A stretch of 64,000 bases of DNA from Candidatus Poriferihabitans sp. (lineage in GTDB: Bacteria; Pseudomonadota; Gammaproteobacteria; Arenicellales; Poriferihabitantaceae): NCBI GenBank assembly GCA_965220975.1, contig OZ244855.1, positions 2,384,967 to 2,448,966 of the forward strand, in the 5' to 3' direction. The position numbers were made by a program, and so were the translations under genes. Below the pieces are notes generated by a model. That model did no database searches. It saw nothing but the letters and a program-made list of their open reading frames with translations, and had not been told where the DNA came from. This document shows positions 18,259-30,268 of the stretch, in pieces. Position 1 is the first letter of the stretch; each line of letters opens with the position of its first letter.

Positions 18259-19872
18259 TTAATTTTGCTTGGTGCAGTTGGAACCTCGGCATTCGGCACC
18301 GAATGCCCCGGAGACCTGCCCGCCATCGGCAGCAGTGCCAACCCCGGACTGGAAGGTACCGACCAGACCATAGGGCGCAAAGTGATGTCCGTTTGACTGT
18401 CTCTCCGGTGCGACATTTCCATAGAATTGCGCGTTGAATGTATCGCCCTTGTCGCTTGCCCCTCCATCTGTAATATCCCCGGACAATTTGACTTCCCATG
18501 CGGAGTCCGGATCAGCTCCCGTTCCGGTCACCTTCTTGAAATTGCCAATCGTTCCGGAAAGGGTATCTTTGCCAGAGCCGGCGAATTTCGCTTCAAAGTT
18601 GGCATCCGCAGTAAATTCCCCGAAACCGGTTGCCACCCTGTCATCGTTGTCATCGGTCATGGTTCGGACATACAGGCCGGCAGCTCCACCGCTGTACGTT
18701 GCGGTCAGCACACCATCACCAGATAGAACGATGTCGCGGGTTTCTTGGTATTTTCTACCGCCACCGGCAAACAGATCAACCTGTATGGAAGTTACTTCAT
18801 TCTTGTCAGTGACGTCGGTGTTCCAGTACAAGCCGAAATTCAGGAAGTTGGGATTCTGCAACTTGGCCCATTTCGCGTCAACCTTGGTTGTTTCACTGAA
18901 ATTGGTTGGATGGAATGTAATGCCACTAACATTCTCCGCATTTATCGGAAGGGCTGTTCTTTGTGCGGGATTAGTAGGGTCAGCTCGTTCTCTATTATTA
19001 TCATTAAGCACAAATGCTGAACCACTCGGAAGGACAAATGTCCCCGGAACATCAACGAAGTCGCCTTTCAGTTCCCATCTACCATTATCAGAATTATTAT
19101 CAGGCGTATCAGGATCATAATCTGCATTCCATGTCCATGATTCGGTAAAGAAGTCGGAAGGAACCGCATCAACATTGAAAGATCCCCTTGCTGCAGGGGT
19201 GCCCGTAGGATGTAATGAAACCACGCCCGTAGCAGCAACAACGCCACTACTGCCTATAAGAGGCACACCCTTACCATTACCTGTGAAAAACGCAATATAG
19301 TTCTGGCTCAAGTAAACCTCGTTTTCAGTCCAGTAGCGTATGTCCTGTATCCGGCCGGATGATCCTGCCGGGTTGGGGATATGGTGACTGTTGCCAGTCC
19401 AGCCCCCAATGTTGGGACCCGTACCGCTTGGACCGTCTTCCCAGGTTTCGCTATTCGCAAGTTCCGCGGTCATCTCGCTAATGTGACTGCTTGTTAATGG
19501 CAATGCCTCGCTGCCTTCAATGGCATCCAGAAGTTCATCAGCCTGCGTTTTTTCAAGACCGGCCAGGGCCGTTGCTCCAGCGGGGGCAAATTCACCTTTT
19601 CTGGTTTCGGCTTCGTCCTCGAGAGCAGCTAGTTCAGCGCCACTGATTCCGCCATCTTTGGCTTCTTGTATGGCAGCGTCAACACAGTCAGCGTCCCCGC
19701 AATCTTTAATTTTCATGCTGATTGATTCTTTGGTAACCGGGTCACCGCCGCCGTTGTCGCCGCCACCTTCGCCACCGCCAGTTCCGCTGCCAGTGCTTGA
19801 ACTTCCGCCCCCGCAACCGGCGATGGCCAGCATTGCGGCCAAAAGTGCCGCCATAAAAATGTTCTGTTTCAT
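18259..19872 (-). CDS. surface-lipoprotein candidate with TbpB-like C-terminal barrel (SLP b)
   Basis: The lipobox is MKQNIFMAALLAAMLAIAGC, followed by a Gly-rich linker. The C-terminus reads TATYSGGAAGLY...FTADANFEAKF...LSGTIGNF...WEVKL...FYG...VSGAFGAE. Confidence 0.75.
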   Translation of the reverse strand: MKQNIFMAALLAAMLAIAGCGGGSSSTGSGTGGGEGGGDNGGGDPVTKESISMKIKDCGDADCVDAAIQEAKDGGISGAELAALEDEAETRKGEFAPAGATALAGLEKTQADELLDAIEGSEALPLTSSHISEMTAELANSETWEDGPSGTGPNIGGWTGNSHHIPNPAGSSGRIQDIRYWTENEVYLSQNYIAFFTGNGKGVPLIGSSGVVAATGVVSLHPTGTPAARGSFNVDAVPSDFFTESWTWNADYDPDTPDNNSDNGRWELKGDFVDVPGTFVLPSGSAFVLNDNNRERADPTNPAQRTALPINAENVSGITFHPTNFSETTKVDAKWAKLQNPNFLNFGLYWNTDVTDKNEVTSIQVDLFAGGGRKYQETRDIVLSGDGVLTATYSGGAAGLYVRTMTDDNDDRVATGFGEFTADANFEAKFAGSGKDTLSGTIGNFKKVTGTGADPDSAWEVKLSGDITDGGASDKGDTFNAQFYGNVAPERQSNGHHFAPYGLVGTFQSGVGTAADGGQVSGAFGAECRGSNCTKQN

Positions 19873-19902
19873 TTCGTCAAATTCCTCTTAATCAATATCG
19901 GG

Positions 19903-20943
19903 TTAGAAGTCGTAGCGGATGCCGACATAGTGCGTGACGGTTTCCGTTGTTGCATCGTCCACGTCGTCCTTGTCATGATCCTCGGATGCTCCTTCGTACC
20001 AGAATTGCAGTCCACCGCCCACGTTGTAGTAGATGCCGGCCATTACCCTGCTTGGCTCCTTTCCGCTCCCTTCCTTGACTTCCTTGCCTTTGTCGGTGCT
20101 GACATCGGCCTGCGCGTAGCCCAGCCATCCGGAAATCTGATCGGTGAAGCTTGCGCCGACATAGCCCGCCACAAACTCCTTGTCGGCCTGCGTCACGCCC
20201 TTCATGTCTTCTGCTTCATGGTTTGACCAGGCCAGTGAACCCCAGAACTGACCCAGGGACACCTTTGCCGAAACGCCCGCACGTGCATGGTCAAGCCCCA
20301 TGACGGCATCGGTTGCATCCTTGACTATGACCATGTCTTCATCTTCGTTGAGACCCGGCATTTTTTTCATTGCGGCGGTTACTGCAAGGTCGGTCTGGTC
20401 ATCGGCATCAAACGCCGCTGCAAACGACACGTTTTCGGTTGCGTCAATGCTTATGCCAACGCCCCCGCCATTGCCGGTCAGGTTGTTTTCGGTCGAATCG
20501 CTAAACCGCAGATCGGCTTCCAGAGACAACGGACCAACCGAATTTGAATACTTGATCGTGTTCGGTGCCCGATAGGGGGTCGCTCCTTCAACGGGTCCGA
20601 TCGTCCAGGTCGGATCCATGTGCGCGCCGGTGCTGTTGTAGAAGGCAGTCCACTGGTTGCCTACATCAACCCGCCCGAAACCGCCGGAAATGCCTGCGGT
20701 CGCGATGCGGGTGCTGGCAATGCCATCCGCAGCCTTGTCGGTACTGGTCGCAAACTCGTACCGGCCATGAGCGGTCAGGCCATTGCCGAGATCGGAATGC
20801 GCCTTGACGCCGAAACGCGATCCGACAGTTGCCATGTCGGTCGTTGAATCGCCCGTATCCTGAAACTGAAGCGCGTTGTTGATCCGACCGTACACGGTCA
20901 CCTCCGCCTGCACCCCAACCGGTATCATCACCGCGGCAGACAC
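19903..20943 (-). CDS. porin paralog b, lacking start codon and n-region
   Basis: Porin hallmarks are present (TVYGRINNALQF, GSRFGVKAHSDLGNGL, C-terminal GIRYDF). The upstream frame is stop-CGQICCTDDFPAEA-VSAAVMIPVGVQA with no ATG. Confidence 0.8.
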   Translation of the reverse strand: MSAAVMIPVGVQAEVTVYGRINNALQFQDTGDSTTDMATVGSRFGVKAHSDLGNGLTAHGRYEFATSTDKAADGIASTRIATAGISGGFGRVDVGNQWTAFYNSTGAHMDPTWTIGPVEGATPYRAPNTIKYSNSVGPLSLEADLRFSDSTENNLTGNGGGVGISIDATENVSFAAAFDADDQTDLAVTAAMKKMPGLNEDEDMVIVKDATDAVMGLDHARAGVSAKVSLGQFWGSLAWSNHEAEDMKGVTQADKEFVAGYVGASFTDQISGWLGYAQADVSTDKGKEVKEGSGKEPSRVMAGIYYNVGGGLQFWYEGASEDHDKDDVDDATTETVTHYVGIRYDF

Positions 20944-20953
20944 TGCCTCTGCC
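20921..20953 (-). repeat. dyad core site b
   Basis: The reverse complement reads GGCAGAGGCAGTGTCTGCCGCGGTGATGATACC. Confidence 0.8.
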
Positions 20954-21727: not shown

Positions 21728-21857
21728 GGAAGGTTTAACGTGCGATACTTGAGGTCTGGAGAAGAACGGCGCCTATTTTCACAAGTACTAGAATGGCACC
21801 CAGATTCGCCCATTGATGTTGTCGCCAGTGCCACTTGAGCTTCTGTGTCCTGCCAAG

Positions 21858-23257
21858 GAGTTATGGTCGAAAGTAGTGCGTGGGCGGAAAGGGGGGTTGA
21901 AAAAAGCGGCGTAACCGGATTAACTAACAAATTTCAAAAACCGTTAACCAAGAGGTACGCCACTATGAGAGATGATAACATTATTGACTATTCAAAAATC
22001 GGCAAGTTCAAGGATGAATTGACCGCGATTCTGCGCGAGGGTGCCCGTCGGCTGCTGCAGGTGGCAGTGGAAGCCGAGCTGGGCGAGTTCCTGAAGCAGT
22101 ATGAAGACCGCCGCACCGAACAGAATCTCCGGCTGGTGGTGCGCAGTGGCCATCATCCGGAGCGCTCGATCCAGACCGGGATCGGCTCGGTCCCGGTGCG
22201 GATTCCGAAGGTTCGTTCCAACGACGGCAAGCCGGTGACCTTCCGCTCGTCGGTGGTTCCGTCGTATGTGCGCAAGAGTCGCACGCTGGAGGCCTGGGTG
22301 CCCTGGCTGTACCTGAAGGGGGTCAGCACCGGCGAGATGGCCGGCGTGCTGTCCGGGCTGCTGGGGAAGCAGGCGAAGGGGTTCTCGCCGTCAGTGGTCA
22401 AGCGTCTCAAGCGGGTCTGGCTGGACGAGAGGAAGGAGTGGACGCAGCGTGACCTGAGCCAGGACCGGTGGGTGTACGTCTGGGCGGACGGGGTGTACAG
22501 CGGTCTCCGCAACGAGGAGACGAAGCTCTGCTGCCTGGTGGTGATCGGCGTGGACGACCAGGGCCGGAAGTCGATTCTGGCCATCGAGGACGGGGTGCGC
22601 GAGTCCACCCTGAGCTGGCAGGACGTGCTGCTGGACCTGAAGAGCCGGGGCATGAACGCTCCGAAACTGGCGATCGGGGACGGTGCCATGGGGTTCTGGT
22701 CGGCACTCGACCGGGTCTATCCGGAGGCCCGGCACCAGCGTTGCTGGGTGCACAAGACCGCCAACGTGCTGGCCGCCATGCCGAAGGCCATCCATCCCAA
22801 GGTGAAGTCGGCACTGCAGCAGATCTGGATGGCGGAGACCCGGAACCATGCCGACCGGGCCTTCGACCGTTTCCTGGCCCGCTACCAGGACAAGTATCCC
22901 AAGGCCGCAGTGAAGCTGATCGAGGATCGCAAGGAGCTGATGAACTTCTTCGACTTCCCGGCCGAGCACTGGCAGAGCATTCGCACCACCAACCCGATCG
23001 AGTCGACCTTTGCCACGATCCGCCACCGGACCCGGACGACCCGGGGCTACCTGAGCCGCGACACCATGCTCGACATGATGTTCAAGCTCGGACAGTGCGC
23101 GGAATCCCGCTGGCGAAGGCTGCGCGGGTTCCGCAGGCTCGGACAGGTCATCGAGGGAGTGCAGTTCAAGGATGGAATTGAGGTACAATCAGACCAGAAA
23201 ACGGTAGCCGCTGGATGAACCCCTTTCCGCCCCGCGCACTACTTTCGACCATAACTC
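21858..23257 (+). mobile_element. IS256-family insertion sequence, copy 2 (1400 bp)
   Basis: The terminal inverted repeats match copy 1. An 8-bp direct repeat CTGCCAAG flanks both ends (21850-21857 and 23258-23265). Confidence 0.9.
21965..23218 (+). CDS. IS256-family transposase
   Basis: The 417-aa protein differs from copy 1 at two visible residues (VVPSYV versus VVPPYV, and TRGYLS versus TRGCLS). Confidence 0.9.
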   Translation: MRDDNIIDYSKIGKFKDELTAILREGARRLLQVAVEAELGEFLKQYEDRRTEQNLRLVVRSGHHPERSIQTGIGSVPVRIPKVRSNDGKPVTFRSSVVPSYVRKSRTLEAWVPWLYLKGVSTGEMAGVLSGLLGKQAKGFSPSVVKRLKRVWLDERKEWTQRDLSQDRWVYVWADGVYSGLRNEETKLCCLVVIGVDDQGRKSILAIEDGVRESTLSWQDVLLDLKSRGMNAPKLAIGDGAMGFWSALDRVYPEARHQRCWVHKTANVLAAMPKAIHPKVKSALQQIWMAETRNHADRAFDRFLARYQDKYPKAAVKLIEDRKELMNFFDFPAEHWQSIRTTNPIESTFATIRHRTRTTRGYLSRDTMLDMMFKLGQCAESRWRRLRGFRRLGQVIEGVQFKDGIEVQSDQKTVAAG

Positions 23258-23452
23258 CTGCCAAGTCGGACTAATTCCTACAAGAGGACGAAATTACCTC
23301 GTCTCCAGCATAAACAGACGACCATTACCCTGCCACTGGACTCATCTTGCCAAACTTGATCAGAAAAATTACTTATAGCAAGGCAGGCGTGGAGACATGA
23401 AAGAGCAATAACAATAATGAACCTGTAGACAACTTTCCCAATCAATTGCAGA

Positions 23453-23908
23453 TTACCCAACTCCACACTTTCGTCTGTTCAAAAAGTTACGTATCTTATG
23501 CTTGGAATCATGTGGATATATTGCTCTTTTTTTCCTTGACACGGAGGGAAGCACTTTCAAAAAATCTGATTTCAAGTCTTGATCGGCTGTGCATAATACA
23601 CGCACTTCGCTCGCAAAGGCTAGTTCAAGAACATGTTGGTCATTGGAATGAAACTGTAACTGTAGATCCTTCAGTTTTTTTGATGCTGCGTTTAATGAAT
23701 CTTCGCTGACCACTTGTGCAGATATCCTCCTTTGTTCAGTATAAAAGGCTAGAATTTTCTCGTTGTTTTTTAACTCTTTCCAGAATTGACCAGATTTTGT
23801 ATAAACGATAATGCCATCGCCTTTGTTAACCCATTTTCGCCAATCCTTCATCTCATCACTAGCAAAACGTGAATACAAACTTGTGTCTAGAATTGTCTTG
23901 ATACACAT
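23453..23908 (-). CDS. PIN-domain protein
   Basis: The acidic residues are in PIN-like positions: ILDTS near the N-terminus, SNDQHVLELA, and LCTADQDL. Confidence 0.5.
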   Translation of the reverse strand: MCIKTILDTSLYSRFASDEMKDWRKWVNKGDGIIVYTKSGQFWKELKNNEKILAFYTEQRRISAQVVSEDSLNAASKKLKDLQLQFHSNDQHVLELAFASEVRVLCTADQDLKSDFLKVLPSVSRKKRAIYPHDSKHKIRNFLNRRKCGVG

Positions 23909-23994
23909 GAATCAACTCTCCTAGTGATTTTGAAAAGACATCTACCTATTAACACTCTCAATCTTAATTATTCGATTATTAGCGAGAAATTCTC

Positions 23995-25248
23995 TCAGGA
24001 GTCAAGACCTAACAAATCGTTTGTTTCTCGCTTAAAAAAATCACGATAACCCTTAGGTGCCCCCAGCACATTGCCAGATTTGTCGATATTCATACTATGA
24101 ATAACACTACTTTTACCGTTGTCTGTAGGCTGAAAATACAAAATTGACAGATCTTCAGGTTTCAATTCCCCGCGCATAACACAGATTTGAAACCGATCTA
24201 AAAAATGGTCGCTATGTGTTTCAATTATGCAACTTTTCTCATTTTCAACTATAAATTGTGCAAGGCAAGCTTGAGATTCTGGATGCAGATGAACTTCAGG
24301 ATGCTGCATCAAAAAAACCGTATTCTCGGGTTTTTCGTAAAATGCGTTTGCCCATGGAATAACACTATAGATACCGTATCCCATATCCTGTAAATTATGC
24401 TTGCCAGCCTTTGTATGAACTATCACTTCAAACTGTTGGTTACTAGCTTCTATATGAATGTCTTCCCATAACTTTAAACTTCTACCAAAACTCGAGAGGA
24501 ATTTGCTATCTATAGTATCAGTATCGATCAATTTATTAGGACGACTCTCGTAAAATCTTTGGAGCGGCGTAGGTTGCATTGTTACAGGCATAAATACCCC
24601 AAATGCTGGCTCAGGCAACAAAGGCAACTCGACCCTAAGGAAATTGATAAACTTGCTAAAGGCTTCAACATCTTCGTCTTTATGACCTTGAAGTTTGAAT
24701 AATTTTGGATCCGCATTGTACGGAAGATGTCCATGCTTAATTGCACGTGAAAGCCAGGTTGAAATCTGAGAATGGGAAATCGCAGATCGGCTTAAGGAGA
24801 GACGAAAACCAGGAGTTTCAAATGACAAGTAAGGATTATGATGGTCATGTATAGAAATCTCAATTTGGCTTTCTTCCCAGCCTAACAAAATCCTCTTTTC
24901 TCTCGGATAACCGCTAGGCAAATGGTAACCGATTGGCGAACGATCAAAATCAAATCGCACCTTTTGATGACAATGATTGGCAAAAACACCCTCAAGGGAA
25001 AATGTATCGGATTTTGTTCGCGCGATAGTATTGAAATCTCCCATTGACAGAGGACTCAAATCAAAATAGTTGCGGTCATCAAGCTGGTGTAAGTTAGCAA
25101 GCTGAATTAACGCCTTATAACAACCGATGAAGGTGGATTTCCCGGAGCTATTGGGGCCGACTAAAAGAGTAACTCTGGCCAAATTTCCAGACTGTTCACC
25201 CGCAAAACATCGTACATCCCGAAGTTTAAGTTCAATCATTTTAGCCAT
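23995..25248 (-). CDS. ABC/RecF-like AAA ATPase (AAA_15/DUF3696-like)
   Basis: Walker A is GPNSSGKST. The Walker B/D-loop region is VFLMQHPEVHLHPESQ, followed by IIETHSDHF. Confidence 0.7.
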   Translation of the reverse strand: MAKMIELKLRDVRCFAGEQSGNLARVTLLVGPNSSGKSTFIGCYKALIQLANLHQLDDRNYFDLSPLSMGDFNTIARTKSDTFSLEGVFANHCHQKVRFDFDRSPIGYHLPSGYPREKRILLGWEESQIEISIHDHHNPYLSFETPGFRLSLSRSAISHSQISTWLSRAIKHGHLPYNADPKLFKLQGHKDEDVEAFSKFINFLRVELPLLPEPAFGVFMPVTMQPTPLQRFYESRPNKLIDTDTIDSKFLSSFGRSLKLWEDIHIEASNQQFEVIVHTKAGKHNLQDMGYGIYSVIPWANAFYEKPENTVFLMQHPEVHLHPESQACLAQFIVENEKSCIIETHSDHFLDRFQICVMRGELKPEDLSILYFQPTDNGKSSVIHSMNIDKSGNVLGAPKGYRDFFKRETNDLLGLDS

Positions 25249-25321
25249 TTAACACATTCTCTGAAATTTAATCGAAACCAGTAAACCAAGTATTACTATT
25301 TTTTAGCGGATCCTGTTGAGT

Positions 25322-26719
25322 CTAGACCTTATTGATGTATGGAAAGCAATAATGATCCCCGAGTGCTTCAGTTTTTTCTATAGAACAATTTTTATCACAG
25401 ACCTGATGCTTACGCTTTAGTTGATTAGGAATAAAAGTGTAATGCAGCTTACTTGCAGATGGAGGCCACCAATTTTCAGACATGATTAGTCTTATCATCT
25501 GAAGTACCATAAAACTTGCGAGATTGACACTAAATGGAAATACATTTTGATTTCTCGGCCCATTTTCCTGCTGTAAGTTGGCAACATAAGCCGGATCATC
25601 AAATGAACCATCTCGTTCTAAAACAACATCTGATGAGGTATACTGTCCATCGCATCGCAAGCAACGATGCCCAGGACCTACAGTAGTAACACTCCAAGAA
25701 GCTTGTCCCAGAGTTTCGTCGTCCTTGTTATCAACAAAAACACCACCAGAAATTACTGGTATGCAGTGTACATATGCGATACGGTTAATCACATCTTTTG
25801 GTAGCGGACGGTCTACAGCAGAAAATAATATGTCACAATCCAAAGCTGCAAGAAAGGCTGTTTCATTTTCTATGGGTTGTGCGTATGTCTGAACATCGAC
25901 TTGTTCAGCAGTACTGCTGTGACGGAGATGTTCAGATGCGACGTCTACCTTGTTTTGACCTACATGATCAATTCCTGCGTATAACAGACGATCAAGATTG
26001 TGTTCTTGAACTCTATCGTGATCAATCAAAATTAGTTGTCCTACTCCTATCCTTGCAAGAATCTCCGCAACCATGGTGCCTACACTACCCACCCCAACCA
26101 CTCCGATTCGAAGACGGACAAGGTTGTTTTGACAATGAAGCCCCCAAGTATCAAAAGTGCGTTGGAGAATTTTTCGACGTGGGGGAACGGGTACAGCATC
26201 ATCGTTGAACGTTACATGAAGACCTTTTCCCACTACACGAACTTTGTCACACCAAACACGATAAAACCGTTCTCCATTCCACATCCAGAGTCTTGCGCTC
26301 CAACTTTCATCAGTCCCAAGAGTAAGTCCAAGAAGTGGGAAACCAGTAACTCTAGCCAACGGTGAAATTCGGTCTCTTTCTGCAACAACATCAGGTCTAC
26401 TCATGTCCTGCCAGCCAGGTTTAAGATGGTTATGCATAAATACAAGACCAGCTTTTTTCTTGTAAGCAATACGAACCGCCCTCGTTAGGTAGTTAGCCGT
26501 AAAACTTACGTTTCCATGTAGCTTTCGCTCTCCAGAATTCGGCGGGATGATTTCATAGATAATTGAAGTCTTTCTTTTTGCGCCAGTACTTTGACGCCAA
26601 AGACCAAAACAAAGGTCTTCTTGAAGACTTCCTTGATAGAAGTGTTGCAACAATAGTTCTCGCGCTTGATCATGAACGTTAACTGGTATTGCAACTTCCT
26701 CTCTCATAACTGGCTCCAA
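25322..26719 (-). CDS. JAB (JAMM) deubiquitinase-like domain fused to an E1-like ThiF adenylyltransferase
   Basis: The N-terminal JAMM-type motif is FMHNHLKPGWQDMSRPD (HxH...SxxD). The central Rossmann segment is IGVVGVGSVGTMVAEILARIGVGQLILIDHDRV, and a CLRC zinc-type motif is present. Confidence 0.75.
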   Translation of the reverse strand: MEPVMREEVAIPVNVHDQARELLLQHFYQGSLQEDLCFGLWRQSTGAKRKTSIIYEIIPPNSGERKLHGNVSFTANYLTRAVRIAYKKKAGLVFMHNHLKPGWQDMSRPDVVAERDRISPLARVTGFPLLGLTLGTDESWSARLWMWNGERFYRVWCDKVRVVGKGLHVTFNDDAVPVPPRRKILQRTFDTWGLHCQNNLVRLRIGVVGVGSVGTMVAEILARIGVGQLILIDHDRVQEHNLDRLLYAGIDHVGQNKVDVASEHLRHSSTAEQVDVQTYAQPIENETAFLAALDCDILFSAVDRPLPKDVINRIAYVHCIPVISGGVFVDNKDDETLGQASWSVTTVGPGHRCLRCDGQYTSSDVVLERDGSFDDPAYVANLQQENGPRNQNVFPFSVNLASFMVLQMIRLIMSENWWPPSASKLHYTFIPNQLKRKHQVCDKNCSIEKTEALGDHYCFPYINKV

Positions 26720-27081
26720 AATCTGGCCAGGTGCCGATTAAGAAAAGTCTTCATGTTCTTTTCGTCGACTGCCAGCATGTCCCAAAAATCGCTTGGCGGC
26801 ACACTGAAAACCTTCCAGTTCGAGCCATTATGAGTGAATTCGCTATGGTGATGTATCTTGCTGTCAGGCAAACACTCGATACAAATCCAGTGTGGTGGAT
26901 ACTCTGGATATGTATCCTCCTGAAATCCGATACCTAAATTAAAAACTTGTCCGCGATAGCGACCTGATTGAACGAGATACTCAATTACAACCAGAGGATA
27001 TTGAAAATCATACGGCTTAAATTCTTTGACATTTAACCCGAACTCCTCCAGTTCTACCAATATTTTTTTCAGTATTTGCAT
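26704..27081 (-). CDS. E2-like (UBC/RWD-fold) protein
   Basis: The 125-aa protein carries YPEYPPHWICIEC and overlaps both neighbouring genes (16 nt and 13 nt). The assignment rests on this motif and on its position in a Ubl-E2-E1 operon. Confidence 0.5.
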   Translation of the reverse strand: MQILKKILVELEEFGLNVKEFKPYDFQYPLVVIEYLVQSGRYRGQVFNLGIGFQEDTYPEYPPHWICIECLPDSKIHHHSEFTHNGSNWKVFSVPPSDFWDMLAVDEKNMKTFLNRHLARFWSQL

Positions 27082-27524
27082 GCAACGGGGGTCGCCCCAC
27101 GATGCACGGCGATAAATTTATCACCTTTATGCAACTTAACTTCTTCGTCCAATCGATCATATTTCTGCTCTGTTAGAAGATTTTCAAGGTAGTAGCTTTT
27201 CAGATCATTGACATCAATGCTGGCTGGTCTCCCAGCAATTTCAAGAATCTTTTCCACAGTCACAGGATTTACACTGGTTTTTTGTTCTTCACCGTTGACT
27301 TGATAGTCAACAACTAGATAATCCGTTCTTGAAGCAACCTTAAACTGGTCACCATCACAAATCAGTATGCTTTCATTTGGGTTACCATGTTTGATACCAT
27401 CTGGTGTTATTAACACGGCATCATAGACCGAATCATCAACTGCCTTCAAAAGGCTTTCGACGGTCTGATTTGGACTTTCAAAAGAGATAGTTTGGTCTTG
27501 GATACAGATATTTATCTTTGTCAT
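27069..27524 (-). CDS. ubiquitin-like (multiubiquitin-type, two beta-grasp units) protein
   Basis: The 151-aa protein has a GAGG RBS and is the first gene of the operon. Two repeated segments about 70 aa long have beta-grasp-like patterns (ICIQDQTISFESPNQTV... and VDYQVNGEEQKTSVNPVTV...). Confidence 0.5.
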   Translation of the reverse strand: MTKINICIQDQTISFESPNQTVESLLKAVDDSVYDAVLITPDGIKHGNPNESILICDGDQFKVASRTDYLVVDYQVNGEEQKTSVNPVTVEKILEIAGRPASIDVNDLKSYYLENLLTEQKYDRLDEEVKLHKGDKFIAVHRGATPVACKY

Positions 27525-27896
27525 TGCACTTTACCTCTACATTACCGTGAAACTGTTATCAAAAACCAAATAAAGGATTACGGAACATGCCATTTATTGT
27601 TGAATTTTCAACTTTCAAACTTTAATTTTATGTCATTACCATGCCACAGTTGTGAGTTTTCAGCCAAATCCGTCATGTCAAGTGAAAATAGGAGGTGGTA
27701 AATCTCTTTCGTTTATCACGGCAAACGACAGTCACAAATTGCTATGATAAAAGTGACCGTTCGGTAATGCAATAGTTTATTCCAAACTATCCTCATTTCT
27801 TCAATTTCGTCTACTCTAAAATGATAGGTAATTATTCGAACATTCCCTGTATCGAATAATGCTATTTGATCACAAAAAGCAACTCAGACAAGCTAT

Positions 27897-28985
27897 GTGG
27901 CTATGGCAGTGTCTGCCGCGGTGATGATTCCGGTTGGGGTGCAGGCGGAGGTGACCGTGTACGGTCGCGTCAACAACGCGCTTCAGTTTCAGGATAAGGG
28001 CGATTCAACGACCGACTTAAGTGGCATTTCATCGCGTTTCGGCGTCAAGGCGCATTCCGATCTCGGCAATGGCCTGACCGCTCACGGCCGGTACGAGTTT
28101 GGGACCAATACCGACAAGGCAGCGGATGGCATTGCCAGCACCCGCATCGCGACCGCAGGCATTTCCGGCGGTTTCGGGCGGATTGATGTGGGTAATCAGT
28201 GGACCGCTTACTACAATACCACTGGCGCAATGATGGATCCGACCTACACCATTGGCCCCATTGGTGGTGCAACCCCTTACCGCTCACCGAATACGATCAA
28301 ATATTCCAATTCGGTCGGGCCTCTTACTTTGGAAGCTGACTTGCGGTTAAGCGATTCTGCTGAAAACTTAAACGCTACTGGCGTTCCGGTTCTTTCCGGT
28401 CATGGCGGGGGCGTTGGTATCAGTATAGCCGCAACCGAAGCCCTATCGTTTGCCGCGGCGTTCGATCTTGATGATCAGACGGATTTGGTAGTTACCCCCA
28501 TGGCGGCAGCGATGCCCGGTCTTAACGAAGCGGGAGATGCCGTTGTAGTTAAAGAGGCAACCGCGGCCGTAAATGGAAATGAACACAACCGAGTTGGAGT
28601 TTCCGGGAAGGTATCACTCGGCCAATTCTGGGGATTATTGGCATGGTCTAACCATGAAGCAGAAAACGGCATGGGCGTAACGCAAGCGGATAAGGAATTC
28701 ATGGCGGCCTATGTGGGCATGAGCATGACCGATCAAATTTCCGGATGGATTGGTTTTGCGCAAGCCGATGTTACTACGAATAAAGGTATGGAAGTACAAG
28801 CTGGGCATGGTAAAGAACCTTCGAAAGTAATGGCAGGTTTGTACTACAACCTCGGCGGTGGATTGCGTCTTTGGTATGAAGGTGCTTCGGAAGATCATGA
28901 CAAAGACAGCATGACACCGACTGCGGCGGCACCTGTAACCACGGAAACCGTTACACACTTGGTCGGCATTCGCTACGACTTCTAA
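27897..28985 (+). CDS. porin paralog c, lacking a canonical start and n-region
   Basis: It is a porin paralog most similar to b. The upstream frame is stop-SQKATQTSY-VAMAVSAAVMIPVGVQA. The only in-frame ATG gives MAVSAAVM, which has no charged n-region and no RBS. Confidence 0.8.
   Translation: MAMAVSAAVMIPVGVQAEVTVYGRVNNALQFQDKGDSTTDLSGISSRFGVKAHSDLGNGLTAHGRYEFGTNTDKAADGIASTRIATAGISGGFGRIDVGNQWTAYYNTTGAMMDPTYTIGPIGGATPYRSPNTIKYSNSVGPLTLEADLRLSDSAENLNATGVPVLSGHGGGVGISIAATEALSFAAAFDLDDQTDLVVTPMAAAMPGLNEAGDAVVVKEATAAVNGNEHNRVGVSGKVSLGQFWGLLAWSNHEAENGMGVTQADKEFMAAYVGMSMTDQISGWIGFAQADVTTNKGMEVQAGHGKEPSKVMAGLYYNLGGGLRLWYEGASEDHDKDSMTPTAAAPVTTETVTHLVGIRYDF
27905..27931 (+). repeat. dyad core site c
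   Basis: The sequence is GGCAGTGTCTGCCGCGGTGATGATTCC. On its 5' side it keeps GTGGCT, as the expression copy f does. Confidence 0.8.
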
Positions 28986-29014
28986 CCCGTATTGATTAAG
29001 AGGAATATTAAACA

Positions 29015-30268
29015 ATGAAACAGAATATTTTTATCGCGGCCTTATTGGCCGGTATGCTGGCACTTGCAGGTTGCGGGGGCGGAGGTAGCGTAACCGCGCC
29101 ACCGGCAAATACCATGGTTGATGACATGGACGACGACAAGGAAATGACTGATGATACGGAAGTGGTCGAGGAAGAGGAAACCGAACCAACTCCTGCTACA
29201 TTTTCTAATGTAGACGCAAGCGGAGCATCCTTTGTAACTGGAGAGGGTGGCGCACCTGAAGAAGGTGTTGTAAGCCCGCTTGGCTCTGGCAGAAATGCTA
29301 TAGTTGGCAATGTAACCCTTACATGTCCCTCAACTGCGGGTACGAATGGCTGCCAATGGCGTATTAGCGGCGGCAACATTCAAGCAACCGGCGGAGTAAC
29401 TGCTGTTGTAACCCCATTACCGGTCACGCCAACAGTGGTTGCTACACCGGCAGACGGAAACTGGTTGTCAAAAGGTAGTATTGTTGAGGCTGTGCCAGCT
29501 GCAGGCACTCTCACTACATATGATGTTGTTATAAATGGAGTGCAACAGCAAATAGATGGTTCAGGTCGTTTAGGAACCACCCCAGACTCAAAAGTTGAAG
29601 ATTTACTCATTAGCCATACGAGAACAGAATCTGATAATTTAAGCACGGCCGCTAATGATACCAATGATTTTCTTGTTTTTGGAACTTGGTTAGAGCCAGC
29701 AACTCTTACGAACACATCGGTTACACCAAAACAAGTTTGGCATGGCAGCATGCCGCGCGTTGCACCTGTAAGAAAACAAGCTGATAATGCAACTTATACG
29801 GGCGGTGTGCATGGCTTTTTCAAGGCAGGAGCAAGTGGAACTTGGACGGCATGGACAGGCGCTGCGCTATTAACGGCTAATTTTGTGAAAGGCGAAGTTA
29901 GCGGGATGATTGACAATGATGCAAGTAACACAACAGTAGACGTTCTTGATGAACCAGGAATAATGAGTGCCGGTGTTTCTCATATCTCATTGAAAGGCGC
30001 AACATTCGCGGATAGTCTTAGCGGGAAAGTAACAATTGTAGGGACTGGAGCTGCTCCGGGATCTAACGCAATAACTAGAAACGCACCATCATCAGGAACA
30101 TGGGAGGGTGGTTTCTTTGGTCCTTCAGGGGCTGACCCAACGGGTATTGCCGGAGCTTTTAATGCTGAAAGAAAAGAAGCCGCTGCCAAATCTACCGGAT
30201 TGCCAACCACGCTGCACAGTGCGGTAGAAGTTTTTCATATTAACGGAGCATTTGAAGCACAACGCTAG
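29015..30268 (+). CDS. surface-lipoprotein candidate with TbpB-like C-terminal barrel (SLP c1)
   Basis: The lipobox is MKQNIFIAALLAGMLALAGC, followed by the acidic linker DDMDDDKEMTDDTEVVEEEETE. The C-terminus reads ATYTGGVHGFF...LLTANF...VSGMI...GIAGAFNAE. Confidence 0.7.
   Translation: MKQNIFIAALLAGMLALAGCGGGGSVTAPPANTMVDDMDDDKEMTDDTEVVEEEETEPTPATFSNVDASGASFVTGEGGAPEEGVVSPLGSGRNAIVGNVTLTCPSTAGTNGCQWRISGGNIQATGGVTAVVTPLPVTPTVVATPADGNWLSKGSIVEAVPAAGTLTTYDVVINGVQQQIDGSGRLGTTPDSKVEDLLISHTRTESDNLSTAANDTNDFLVFGTWLEPATLTNTSVTPKQVWHGSMPRVAPVRKQADNATYTGGVHGFFKAGASGTWTAWTGAALLTANFVKGEVSGMIDNDASNTTVDVLDEPGIMSAGVSHISLKGATFADSLSGKVTIVGTGAAPGSNAITRNAPSSGTWEGGFFGPSGADPTGIAGAFNAERKEAAAKSTGLPTTLHSAVEVFHINGAFEAQR

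Follow-up and report, generated by a model that had tools for sequence, protein, structure and literature searches.

A five-gene cassette that joins a Bub-like ubiquitin-like conjugation triad and an ATPase-PIN pair in Candidatus Poriferihabitans and other bacteria

Organization of the locus

A 64,000-nucleotide (nt) stretch of the genome of Candidatus Poriferihabitans sp. (NCBI GenBank assembly GCA_965220975.1, contig OZ244855.1, positions 2,384,967 to 2,448,966 of the forward strand), called the window below whenever its full length is meant, carries five adjacent genes encoding a ubiquitin-like protein (Ubl), an E2-like protein, a fusion of a JAB peptidase with an E1-type domain (JAB-E1), an ABC-type ATPase, and a PIN-domain protein. 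We refer to the five genes together as the cassette, to the first three as the conjugation triad, and to the last two as the ATPase-PIN pair. A check of the open reading frames (ORFs) found all five intact, on the minus strand between 27524 and 23453, at the coordinates given in a preliminary description of the window that had been made from the sequence alone. The genes and the leader that precedes them are as follows.

27525..27896, minus strand: leader upstream of the Ubl gene, AT-rich, 372 nt, whose GAGG ribosome-binding site lies 8 nt upstream of the ATG
27069..27524, minus strand: Ubl, 151 amino acids (aa), two ThiS/MoaD-like beta-grasp units
26704..27081, minus strand: E2-fold protein, 125 aa, proposed Ubl carrier
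25322..26719, minus strand: JAB-E1 fusion, 465 aa from a TTG start
23995..25248, minus strand: ABC-type ATPase with a DUF3696 tail, 417 aa
23453..23908, minus strand: VapC-like PIN-domain protein, 151 aa

Measured from the start codons used here, the Ubl and E2 genes overlap by 13 nt and the E2 and E1 genes by 16 nt, in agreement with the preliminary description. An alternative E1 start, the ATG at 26707, gives the 461-aa form that appears in the public protein collection and reduces the E2/E1 overlap to 4 nt. Spacers of 73 nt and 86 nt separate the E1 gene from the ATPase gene and the ATPase gene from the PIN gene, respectively. The leader is presumed to be the promoter region, and a scan of its 372 nt returned no consensus sigma-70 site. 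The short motifs quoted in the preliminary description (YPEYPPH, HNH...SRPD, the Walker A motif GPNSSGKST, PEVHLHP, and ETHSDH) are all there, in columns that family alignments showed to be invariant or nearly so.

Conservation and linkage of the five genes

Related loci were gathered from one genome per species in a scan seeded with two exact peptide patterns, which gave 74 loci, and the presence of each gene at these loci was scored by tblastn. The preliminary description had wavered between an effector module and an adjacent separate system for the ATPase-PIN pair; the linkage of the pair to the Ubl genes proved to be conserved, with the ATPase gene directly downstream of the E1 gene at 72 of the 74 loci and the PIN gene present at 65. 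The E2-like gene was found at 70 loci and the Ubl gene at 67, the order was constant, and missing genes largely coincided with contig ends or decayed copies. The same gene order at 72/74 loci is more than chance adjacency. The junctions in the relatives are, as read from their sequences, those predicted for a translationally coupled operon: the E2/E1 overlap is 4 nt in 58 of 69 loci, the E1 and ATPase genes share 4 or 1 nt in 48 of the 69, and the gap between the ATPase and PIN genes is about 10 nt in most. Pairwise distances of the five proteins correlated with each other (r = 0.78 to 0.91; Mantel p ≤ 0.001; 40 loci), most closely for E1 and the ATPase (r = 0.91), and the five genes stay together at ATPase identities as low as 33%. 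A search of the flanks of 73 loci for a further conserved gene (BubE, CapH/CapP, or WYL) found none, and no flanking family occurs at more than 8 of the 73. Conserved order, overlapping junctions, correlated distances, and the lack of any other conserved neighbor together indicate that the ATPase-PIN pair belongs to the unit, which consists of exactly five genes and is inherited as a block. In the literature searched, we found no published description of this five-gene architecture.

One Vicinamibacterales metagenome-assembled genome holds two copies of the cassette, on its contigs 2 and 4 (L037 and L038), with identical E1 proteins; one of the two ATPase ORFs is truncated to 253 aa.

The conjugation triad

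The JAB-E1 protein is composed of a JAB/JAMM peptidase (residues ~1 to 175) and a single ThiF-type E1 adenylation domain of ~285 aa (residues ~180 to 465), to which Pfam ThiF matched with an E-value of 3.6e-31. In a phmmer search against the PDB, the best match was Citrobacter BubCD (9ea4; E = 2e-21), over residues 20 to 354, spanning both the JAB domain and the E1 core, and the canonical JAB-ThiF protein of the same genome is 26% identical to JAB-E1 (E = 3e-28). The residues invariant among 28 homologues are E34, H96, H98, S107, D110, G209, G211, G214, C353, C356, Y360, Y378, C441, and C445. The first five of these support the JAB assignment made earlier, in an alignment with the BubCD peptidase domain; G209, G211, and G214 are the nucleotide-binding glycines, and the cysteines form a CxxC...CxxxC zinc-type set. 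The crossover-loop Tyr378 aligned with Y369 of the genome's BubCD-like protein, whose position matches that of the catalytic Y370 in the Citrobacter protein. PADLOC E1-E2 models aligned to the E1 core alone (residues ~180 to 370). The preliminary description was mistaken in regarding the JAB-E1 fusion as non-canonical, because it is found in Type I BubCD and has been known since 2006 from operon type '6e' of Iyer et al. (PMC1779556). A truncation of the window E1 (465 versus ~492 aa) was considered and rejected, the absent part being a variable, unconserved tail after the last conserved motif. Full-length JAB-E1 relatives with 27 to 28% identity occur on haloarchaeal contigs and plasmids (L079 and plasmid matches H11 to H15), so that the family reaches archaea.

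The E2 assignment was upheld at the level of the fold only. An AlphaFold2 (AF2) model of the E2-like protein, built with 40 homologues, had a pLDDT of 93, and its top match in a Foldseek search against the PDB was Citrobacter BubB (9eae_C; TM-score, 0.55; probability, 0.96), followed by the eukaryotic E2s UbcH8, UbcH7, Ubc12, and Ubc13 (TM-score, 0.43 to 0.50). Scans of the protein with Pfam, NCBIfam, and PADLOC gave no match, and sequence and profile searches of the PDB with the family gave nothing significant, the sole hint being Rad6 at the YP..PPH strand (E = 0.84). Placement under Prok-E2_E was rejected after hhalign against the Prok-E2_E protein of the same genome returned a probability of 0.1%. 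Among 31 diverse members, S93, P63, and W100 are invariant and H64 and H117 nearly so, the YP-x-YPPH64 motif is conserved, and cysteine is conserved at no position. The cysteines in 'HWICIEC' that had been singled out in the preliminary description are therefore not the conserved feature of this protein; the invariant residue is Ser93. The family is small, distinct, and previously unrecognized: a search of 1.84 billion representatives gave 74 clusters at E ≤ 1e-3, and in some of these the protein is fused to a Ubl.

Direct Pfam, NCBIfam, and PADLOC scans of the window Ubl gave nothing significant. The beta-grasp assignment nevertheless stands on its relatives, of which 7 of 33 matched Pfam Multi_ubiq (best E = 8e-5) and 10 of 33 matched DUF348, and on hhalign of the Ubl family against the Multi_ubiq protein of the same genome (probability, 88%; E = 3e-6; 137 columns). 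The Ubl carries a ThiS-like 'VNGE' strand and a C-terminal motif, G143-x-T-P-V-A148, in which G143, P146, V147, and A148 are invariant in the alignment. Three extra residues, CKY, follow this motif in the window; of 66 homologues, about 40 end exactly after TPVA, about 20 have 2 to 13 extra residues, and 7 run in frame into the E2-like protein. The variable tail or E2 beyond TPVA fits JAB-mediated maturation, as in the cleavage of BubAB by BubCD, with alanine rather than glycine as the residue to be exposed. Single Ubl-E2 ORFs (274 to 280 aa) occur in only 7 of ~66 relatives. The idea that the split Ubl and E2 genes are a frameshifted fusion was rejected, since most relatives are split alike, with 4-nt overlaps.

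The ATPase and PIN pair

The ATPase matched Pfam AAA_21 (1.2e-16), AAA_15 (2.9e-10), and, just under the cut-off, DUF3696 (3.7e-4; 21.1 bits against a cut-off of 22). Among PADLOC models, the strongest match was NsnB (3.8e-35), followed by PDC-M55A (9e-24), HEC-03B (7e-23, matching only over residues 273 to 400), and AriA (7e-15), with weaker matches to PtuA and GajA. Residues G31, N33, G36, K37, D288, G290, G292, Q315, P317, E318, E343, and H345 are invariant in the alignment, and with them the Walker A motif, the D-x-G-x-G signature, and the H-loop (ETHSDH). At Walker B, the 'DE' is replaced by Q-H in the window and by Q-Q in relatives, with an invariant P-E following. Given this Q-Q/Q-H replacement, the ATPase is probably an ATP-binding switch and not a motor; NsnB has degenerate motifs that resemble those of the window ATPase (PMC12065111).

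The window PIN protein gave nothing significant in direct Pfam, NCBIfam, and PADLOC scans, and neither did sequence and profile searches of the PDB with its family. The PIN assignment was borne out by an AF2 model (pLDDT, 93.8) whose top Foldseek matches were VapC toxins (3h87_B, probability 1.00; 6sd6_D, target-normalized TM-score [TMt] 0.58) and by PIN-clan Pfam matches in the 42 relatives (PIN in 15, PIN_3 in 7, PIN_9 in 6). The alignment shows no variation at M1, C2, D8, W26, D90, and D115 and at least 90% conservation at E45, D109, and C148, leaving the D-E-D-D site intact (D8, E45, D90, and D109, plus D115). The PIN protein is the probable nuclease effector of the cassette. The Met-Cys start and Cys148 could serve as a metal or disulfide staple or as a Ubl acceptor. 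All 42 aligned PIN proteins of the five-gene form start with Met-Cys, and three clearly stand-alone PIN proteins from viral contigs start with MA, MK, and MA, a sample too small to conclude from.

Relation to known systems

The preliminary description had recognized the triad as a prokaryotic Ubl-conjugation cassette and had looked for its kin among Bil-type systems and CBASS Cap2/Cap3; the first part stood, and the second did not, as the nearest characterized relative is Bub. Type I Bub consists of BubAB, BubCD, and BubE, formerly the '6e'/6E.1 or DUF6527 operons (bioRxiv 10.1101/2024.11.21.623953; PMC1779556). The triad shares with it an N-terminal JAB/JAMM domain fused to a homodimer-type ThiF-like E1, conserved JAMM residues and crossover-loop tyrosine, a Ubl with multiple beta-grasp units, an E2-fold protein with a conserved serine in place of cysteine, occasional Ubl-E2 fusions, and mobile or defense contexts. 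The differences are also several. BubE, a DUF6527 serine protease present in all 544 described Bub operons (bioRxiv 10.1101/2024.11.21.623953), is lacking from the window cassette, and the sole DUF6527 match above cut-off in the genome lies ~2.1 Mb away (C1:298539), inside a separate canonical Bub-like operon. The window Ubl ends in alanine (G-x-T-P-V-A) and that of Bub in a conserved glycine; the window Ubl and E2 are two ORFs, mostly split in relatives as well, whereas those of Bub are fused (BubAB); and the E2 pattern is PPH...S...H in the window versus D...S-x-H in Bub. The window E1 has the CxxC...CxxxC zinc-type motif and only 26% identity to the canonical BubCD-like protein, and the ATPase-PIN pair is appended to the window cassette. 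Failing three of the Type I Bub features tested (BubE, C-terminal glycine, and AB fusion), the triad should be filed as a Bub relative, in a sister family, and not as a member. As far as conserved residues can tell, it would nevertheless work like Bub.

The canonical Type-I-like Bub operon of the same genome (C1:295869-300400; L080:4869-9400) lies 2.1 Mb away and encodes a Multi_ubiq protein (258 aa), a Prok-E2_E protein in its own ORF (149 aa), a JAB-ThiF protein (463 aa), and a DUF6527 protein (133 aa). A GmrSD gene precedes it, and a gene for a 564-aa AAA_21/AAA_15 ATPase follows directly, overlapping the DUF6527 gene, which may be coincidence.

Bil (BilABCD) resembles the triad in having a Ubl, E2, E1, and JAB in one operon, tandem beta-grasp Ubls occur there too, and Bil tags phage structural proteins; the window E1, however, has only one adenylation domain (~285 aa), joined to JAB, which sets it apart from Bil. 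In Type II CBASS, with which the 6A-MBL system is grouped here, an E1-type domain and a JAB protein control an immune effector pathway by C-terminal conjugation, which provides a precedent for an immune switch. Cap2 is, by contrast, an E2-E1 fusion with catalytic cysteines, its JAB is separate (Cap3), and there is no Ubl, the CD-NTase itself being conjugated; the window cassette lacks a CD-NTase and has a dedicated Ubl.

The ATPase-PIN pair finds its closest counterparts in Menshen and HEC-03. It shares with them the matches to the NsnB and HEC-03B models, a DUF3696 C-terminal helix, a degenerate Walker B, a GxG signature, and a small PIN-fold protein encoded directly downstream of the ATPase. 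For Menshen, the inactive PIN-like domain of NsnC has been predicted to bind to the DUF3696 tail of NsnB (PMC12065111), and HEC-03, an ABC ATPase with a PIN protein, guards E. coli against phages, both genes being required (bioRxiv 10.1101/2024.01.29.577857). Unlike Menshen, the cassette has no NsnA sensor (ParB-DUF262, ParBDB), either within it or conserved in its flanks, and its PIN protein is a single domain with the D-E-D-D residues kept, whereas NsnC combines an inactive PIN with a separate C-terminal nuclease domain. Unlike HEC-03, the pair sits in a five-gene unit and its PIN sequence shows hardly any similarity to the HEC-03 PIN model. Neither system has a Ubl-E2-E1 triad upstream. PARIS (AriA-AriB) offers a further likeness, in that an ABC ATPase (AriA, matched at 7e-15) sequesters a nuclease effector and frees it on sensing a phage protein; its effector is, however, a Toprim/DUF4435 nuclease and not a PIN protein, it lacks a Ubl module, and the window ATPase matches AriA less well than NsnB.

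Separate occurrence of the modules and mobility of the cassette

Both modules were also found apart. The triad occurs without the ATPase-PIN pair in two loci of the host's own family (L085 and L086; E1 49% and 40% identical) and on actinobacterial plasmids (E1 33 to 38% identical), where RefSeq lists a 'multiubiquitin domain-containing protein', a hypothetical protein, and a ThiF protein. Conversely, ATPase-PIN pairs matching both profiles lie on the IMG/VR viral contigs L099, L100, and L104, the 6 kb upstream of which contain no E1, E2, or Ubl gene. Because each module also exists alone, we read the five-gene cassette as two modules, each viable by itself, that were fused and became fixed together in one clade. 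In the plasmid and phage collections searched, no record carries the five-gene form; the phage collection gave no E1 match, and the plasmid collection gave only triad-only relatives or distant DUF3696 ATPases.

Two of the triad-only plasmids belong to cultured actinobacteria, a Rhodococcus (L120, NZ_CP108044) and a Clavibacter (L121, pCCa, NZ_CP040793). Divergently transcribed ImmA/IrrE- or HigA-type genes stand beside these triads, with AbiE and VapBC-like toxin-antitoxin pairs near; the former resemble the CapP/CapH regulators of Bub, reported beside 31% of Bub operons. On a conjugative plasmid of Aeromonas veronii (NZ_AP022291), a gene for a distant DUF3696 ATPase is followed by an overlapping gene for a 177-aa hypothetical protein and by an RNA ligase family gene (L122:2631-5259), which may be another module of an ATPase and a small partner, with an RNA-repair enzyme.

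An E1 tree was built from the 68 loci with full-length E1, which are distributed over Acidobacteriota (25), Pseudomonadota (20), Gemmatimonadota (8), Rhodothermota (7), Latescibacterota (3), Binatota (3), and Spirochaetota (2). It requires at least 20 changes of phylum, the minimum being 6. Cassette GC content was below that of the flanks in 64 of 65 loci, by a mean of 5.9 points, and followed host GC (r = 0.79); in the window, the island has 40.4% GC against 52.8% in its flanks. Of 7 genomes of the host genus, 1 carried the close form of the cassette, and all 16 genomes examined from other families of the order lacked it. Judged from tree topology, composition, and distribution, the cassette is a mobile one that appears to have been horizontally acquired. 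All 74 loci come from metagenome-assembled genomes, many, as judged by their record titles, from lineages known from sponges, and those of Ca. Poriferihabitaceae were recovered in the Aquatic Symbiosis Genomics project from metagenomes of sponges, so the carriers are apparently sponge-associated. Among the largest flanking ORFs, the only recurrent Pfam families were of restriction-modification or defense types (ResIII, Eco57I, N6_Mtase, EcoEI_R_C, MmeI_Mtase, AAA_21, and AAA_16) and transposases, a pattern that would fit a defense-island habitat.

Interpretation and alternatives

We consider it probable that the five genes are one mobile system that joins a Bub-like conjugation triad and an ATPase-PIN pair, most likely for defense against phages or other mobile elements. 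Within such a system we infer an oxyester chemistry, a nuclease substrate, a direction of signaling between the modules, and a defense function, which may be arranged as follows. The JAB domain would trim the residues after G-x-T-P-V-A, that is, CKY in the window and the fused E2 in some relatives, and the E1 domain would adenylate the exposed C-terminal Ala148. By analogy with BubCD and BubB, the Ubl might then be carried as an oxyester on Tyr378 and handed to Ser93 of the E2-like protein, which would transfer it to a target amine. An oligomer of the ATPase would hold or gate the PIN nuclease through its DUF3696 tail, by analogy with NsnB-NsnC of Menshen, HEC-03, and PARIS, and a trigger would release or activate the nuclease, which would cut RNA and stop growth (abortive infection). 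The Ubl might be conjugated to the ATPase-PIN complex and so switch it, or to an invader protein, which the complex would then recognize.

Several observations weigh against this scheme. The pattern scan samples only the subfamily with at least 50% E1 identity, and since both modules can work alone, the argument for their coupling is one of linkage only. In the window itself, the E1-ATPase and ATPase-PIN junctions (73 and 86 nt) are looser than those of the relatives, and the 73-nt spacer contains a promoter-like site ahead of the ATPase gene. With respect to the chemistry, a CxxC (C353, C356) opens the crossover loop, and C157, C295, and C319 are invariant outside it; the invariant E1 cysteines make a thioester route possible as well. 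The E2 fold match is modest, with all Foldseek E-values above 0.1, and the HEC-03 PIN model (HEC-03A) is barely matched (2 of 42 PIN members, E ~0.007). As for defense, none of the Bub operons tested protected E. coli from phage, according to the authors of the Bub study (bioRxiv 10.1101/2024.11.21.623953).

The alternative that survives best is that two independent defense systems, a BubE-less Ubl triad and a HEC-03/Menshen-like ATPase-PIN pair, travel together in a defense island with no biochemical cross-talk. It draws on the triads that stand alone in L085, L086, and the actinobacterial plasmids and on the ATPase-PIN pairs that stand alone on viral contigs, on the fact that HEC-03 functions with two genes, on the window's 73-nt spacer with its promoter-like site, and on the TnpB-like gene that separates the E1 and ATPase genes in L006. 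Unrelated neighboring defense genes, however, reshuffle fast, and here the same five genes alone recur at 72 of 74 loci in seven phyla, with the overlap of E1 stop and ATPase start in 48 of 69 loci and the E1-ATPase distance correlation (r = 0.91) also arguing for a joint unit; we regard independent co-travel as unlikely.

A particular form of the joint system, in which the Ubl is ligated directly to the effector complex as an on/off switch, is a tentative suggestion that we hold to be rather unlikely as stated. The acceptor would be the N-terminal cysteine of the PIN protein after removal of Met1, or a lysine of the ATPase or PIN protein, with Tyr/Ser oxyesters on the way and an alanine C-terminus. 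If true, it would mean that a ubiquitin-like modification gates a nuclease in prokaryotic immunity, and it would provide a concrete target for Bub-type pathways.

A role other than defense against phages appears improbable. The cassette might be an addiction or stabilization module of a mobile element, or a stress or symbiosis regulator of host-associated (sponge-type) bacteria, with the PIN protein as toxin, and the confinement of all 74 loci to metagenome-assembled genomes, many of sponge-known lineages, would suit such a role, as would the apparent horizontal transfer, the place of PIN proteins as classic toxins of toxin-antitoxin systems, and the Bub operons without reported phage protection. 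Yet the ATPase group has experimentally validated anti-phage members, the recurrent neighbors are restriction-modification and defense genes, the flanks of 73 loci hold no conserved antitoxin-like gene, and the absence of the five-gene form from plasmid and phage records leaves no obvious element to stabilize. A sulfur-carrier or cofactor pathway (ThiS/MoaD with ThiF/MoeB) in place of protein conjugation is highly improbable for the first three genes: ThiF and MoeB models do match the E1, and a ThiS-like 'VNGE' strand occurs in the Ubl, but the ThiF, MoeB, and MoeZ equivalog scores are all far below cut-offs, a JAB peptidase and an E2-fold protein are encoded in the operon, the last residue of the Ubl motif is alanine in place of Gly-Gly, the Ubl is sometimes fused to the E2, rhodanese, ThiG, ThiH, and MoaE are lacking from the conserved flanks, and the closest solved relative, BubCD, catalyzes protein conjugation.

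Bub-type pathways are the most divergent bacterial kin of ubiquitination, with oxyester instead of thioester chemistry. Read as one defense system, the cassette is a natural experiment in which a BubE-less sister of Bub has been hard-wired to an ATPase-nuclease pair with proven anti-phage relatives. The ATPase-PIN complex, or what it senses, is accordingly a place to look for the substrate, with toxicity or RNA cleavage as easy read-outs, and the plasmid hosts of L120 and L121 are culturable starting points for the BubE-less triad. With the cassette, the chemistry known so far would come to include a C-terminal alanine and a new small E2-like family, and the cassette would represent one immune cassette moved repeatedly across phyla among uncultivated, apparently sponge-associated bacteria.

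Neighboring elements

The insertion sequence (IS) that the preliminary description placed next to the island was verified as an IS256-like element (21856-23259) with a 457-aa transposase ORF and 40-nt terminal inverted repeats (21856-21895 and 23220-23259; 88% complementary); 194 nt separate its end from the PIN stop codon. Two porin genes in inverted orientation, at 19903-20943 (minus strand) and 27897-28985 (plus strand), bracket the segment of roughly 7 kb that holds the island, together with the IS and a small coiled-coil gene. The inverted porin arms (19801-20947 and 27905-29086) are 72 to 96% complementary, with their 5' ends pointing inward, an arrangement that, as geometry only, would be that of an invertible or exchangeable segment with defense cargo. 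In L006, the closest relative of the window cassette (E1 66% identical), the gene that splits the operon between the E1 and ATPase genes (L006:9517-10743) encodes a 408-aa TnpB-like protein of the IS605/IS1341 type, with a zinc ribbon and an NADxNAAxNI motif.

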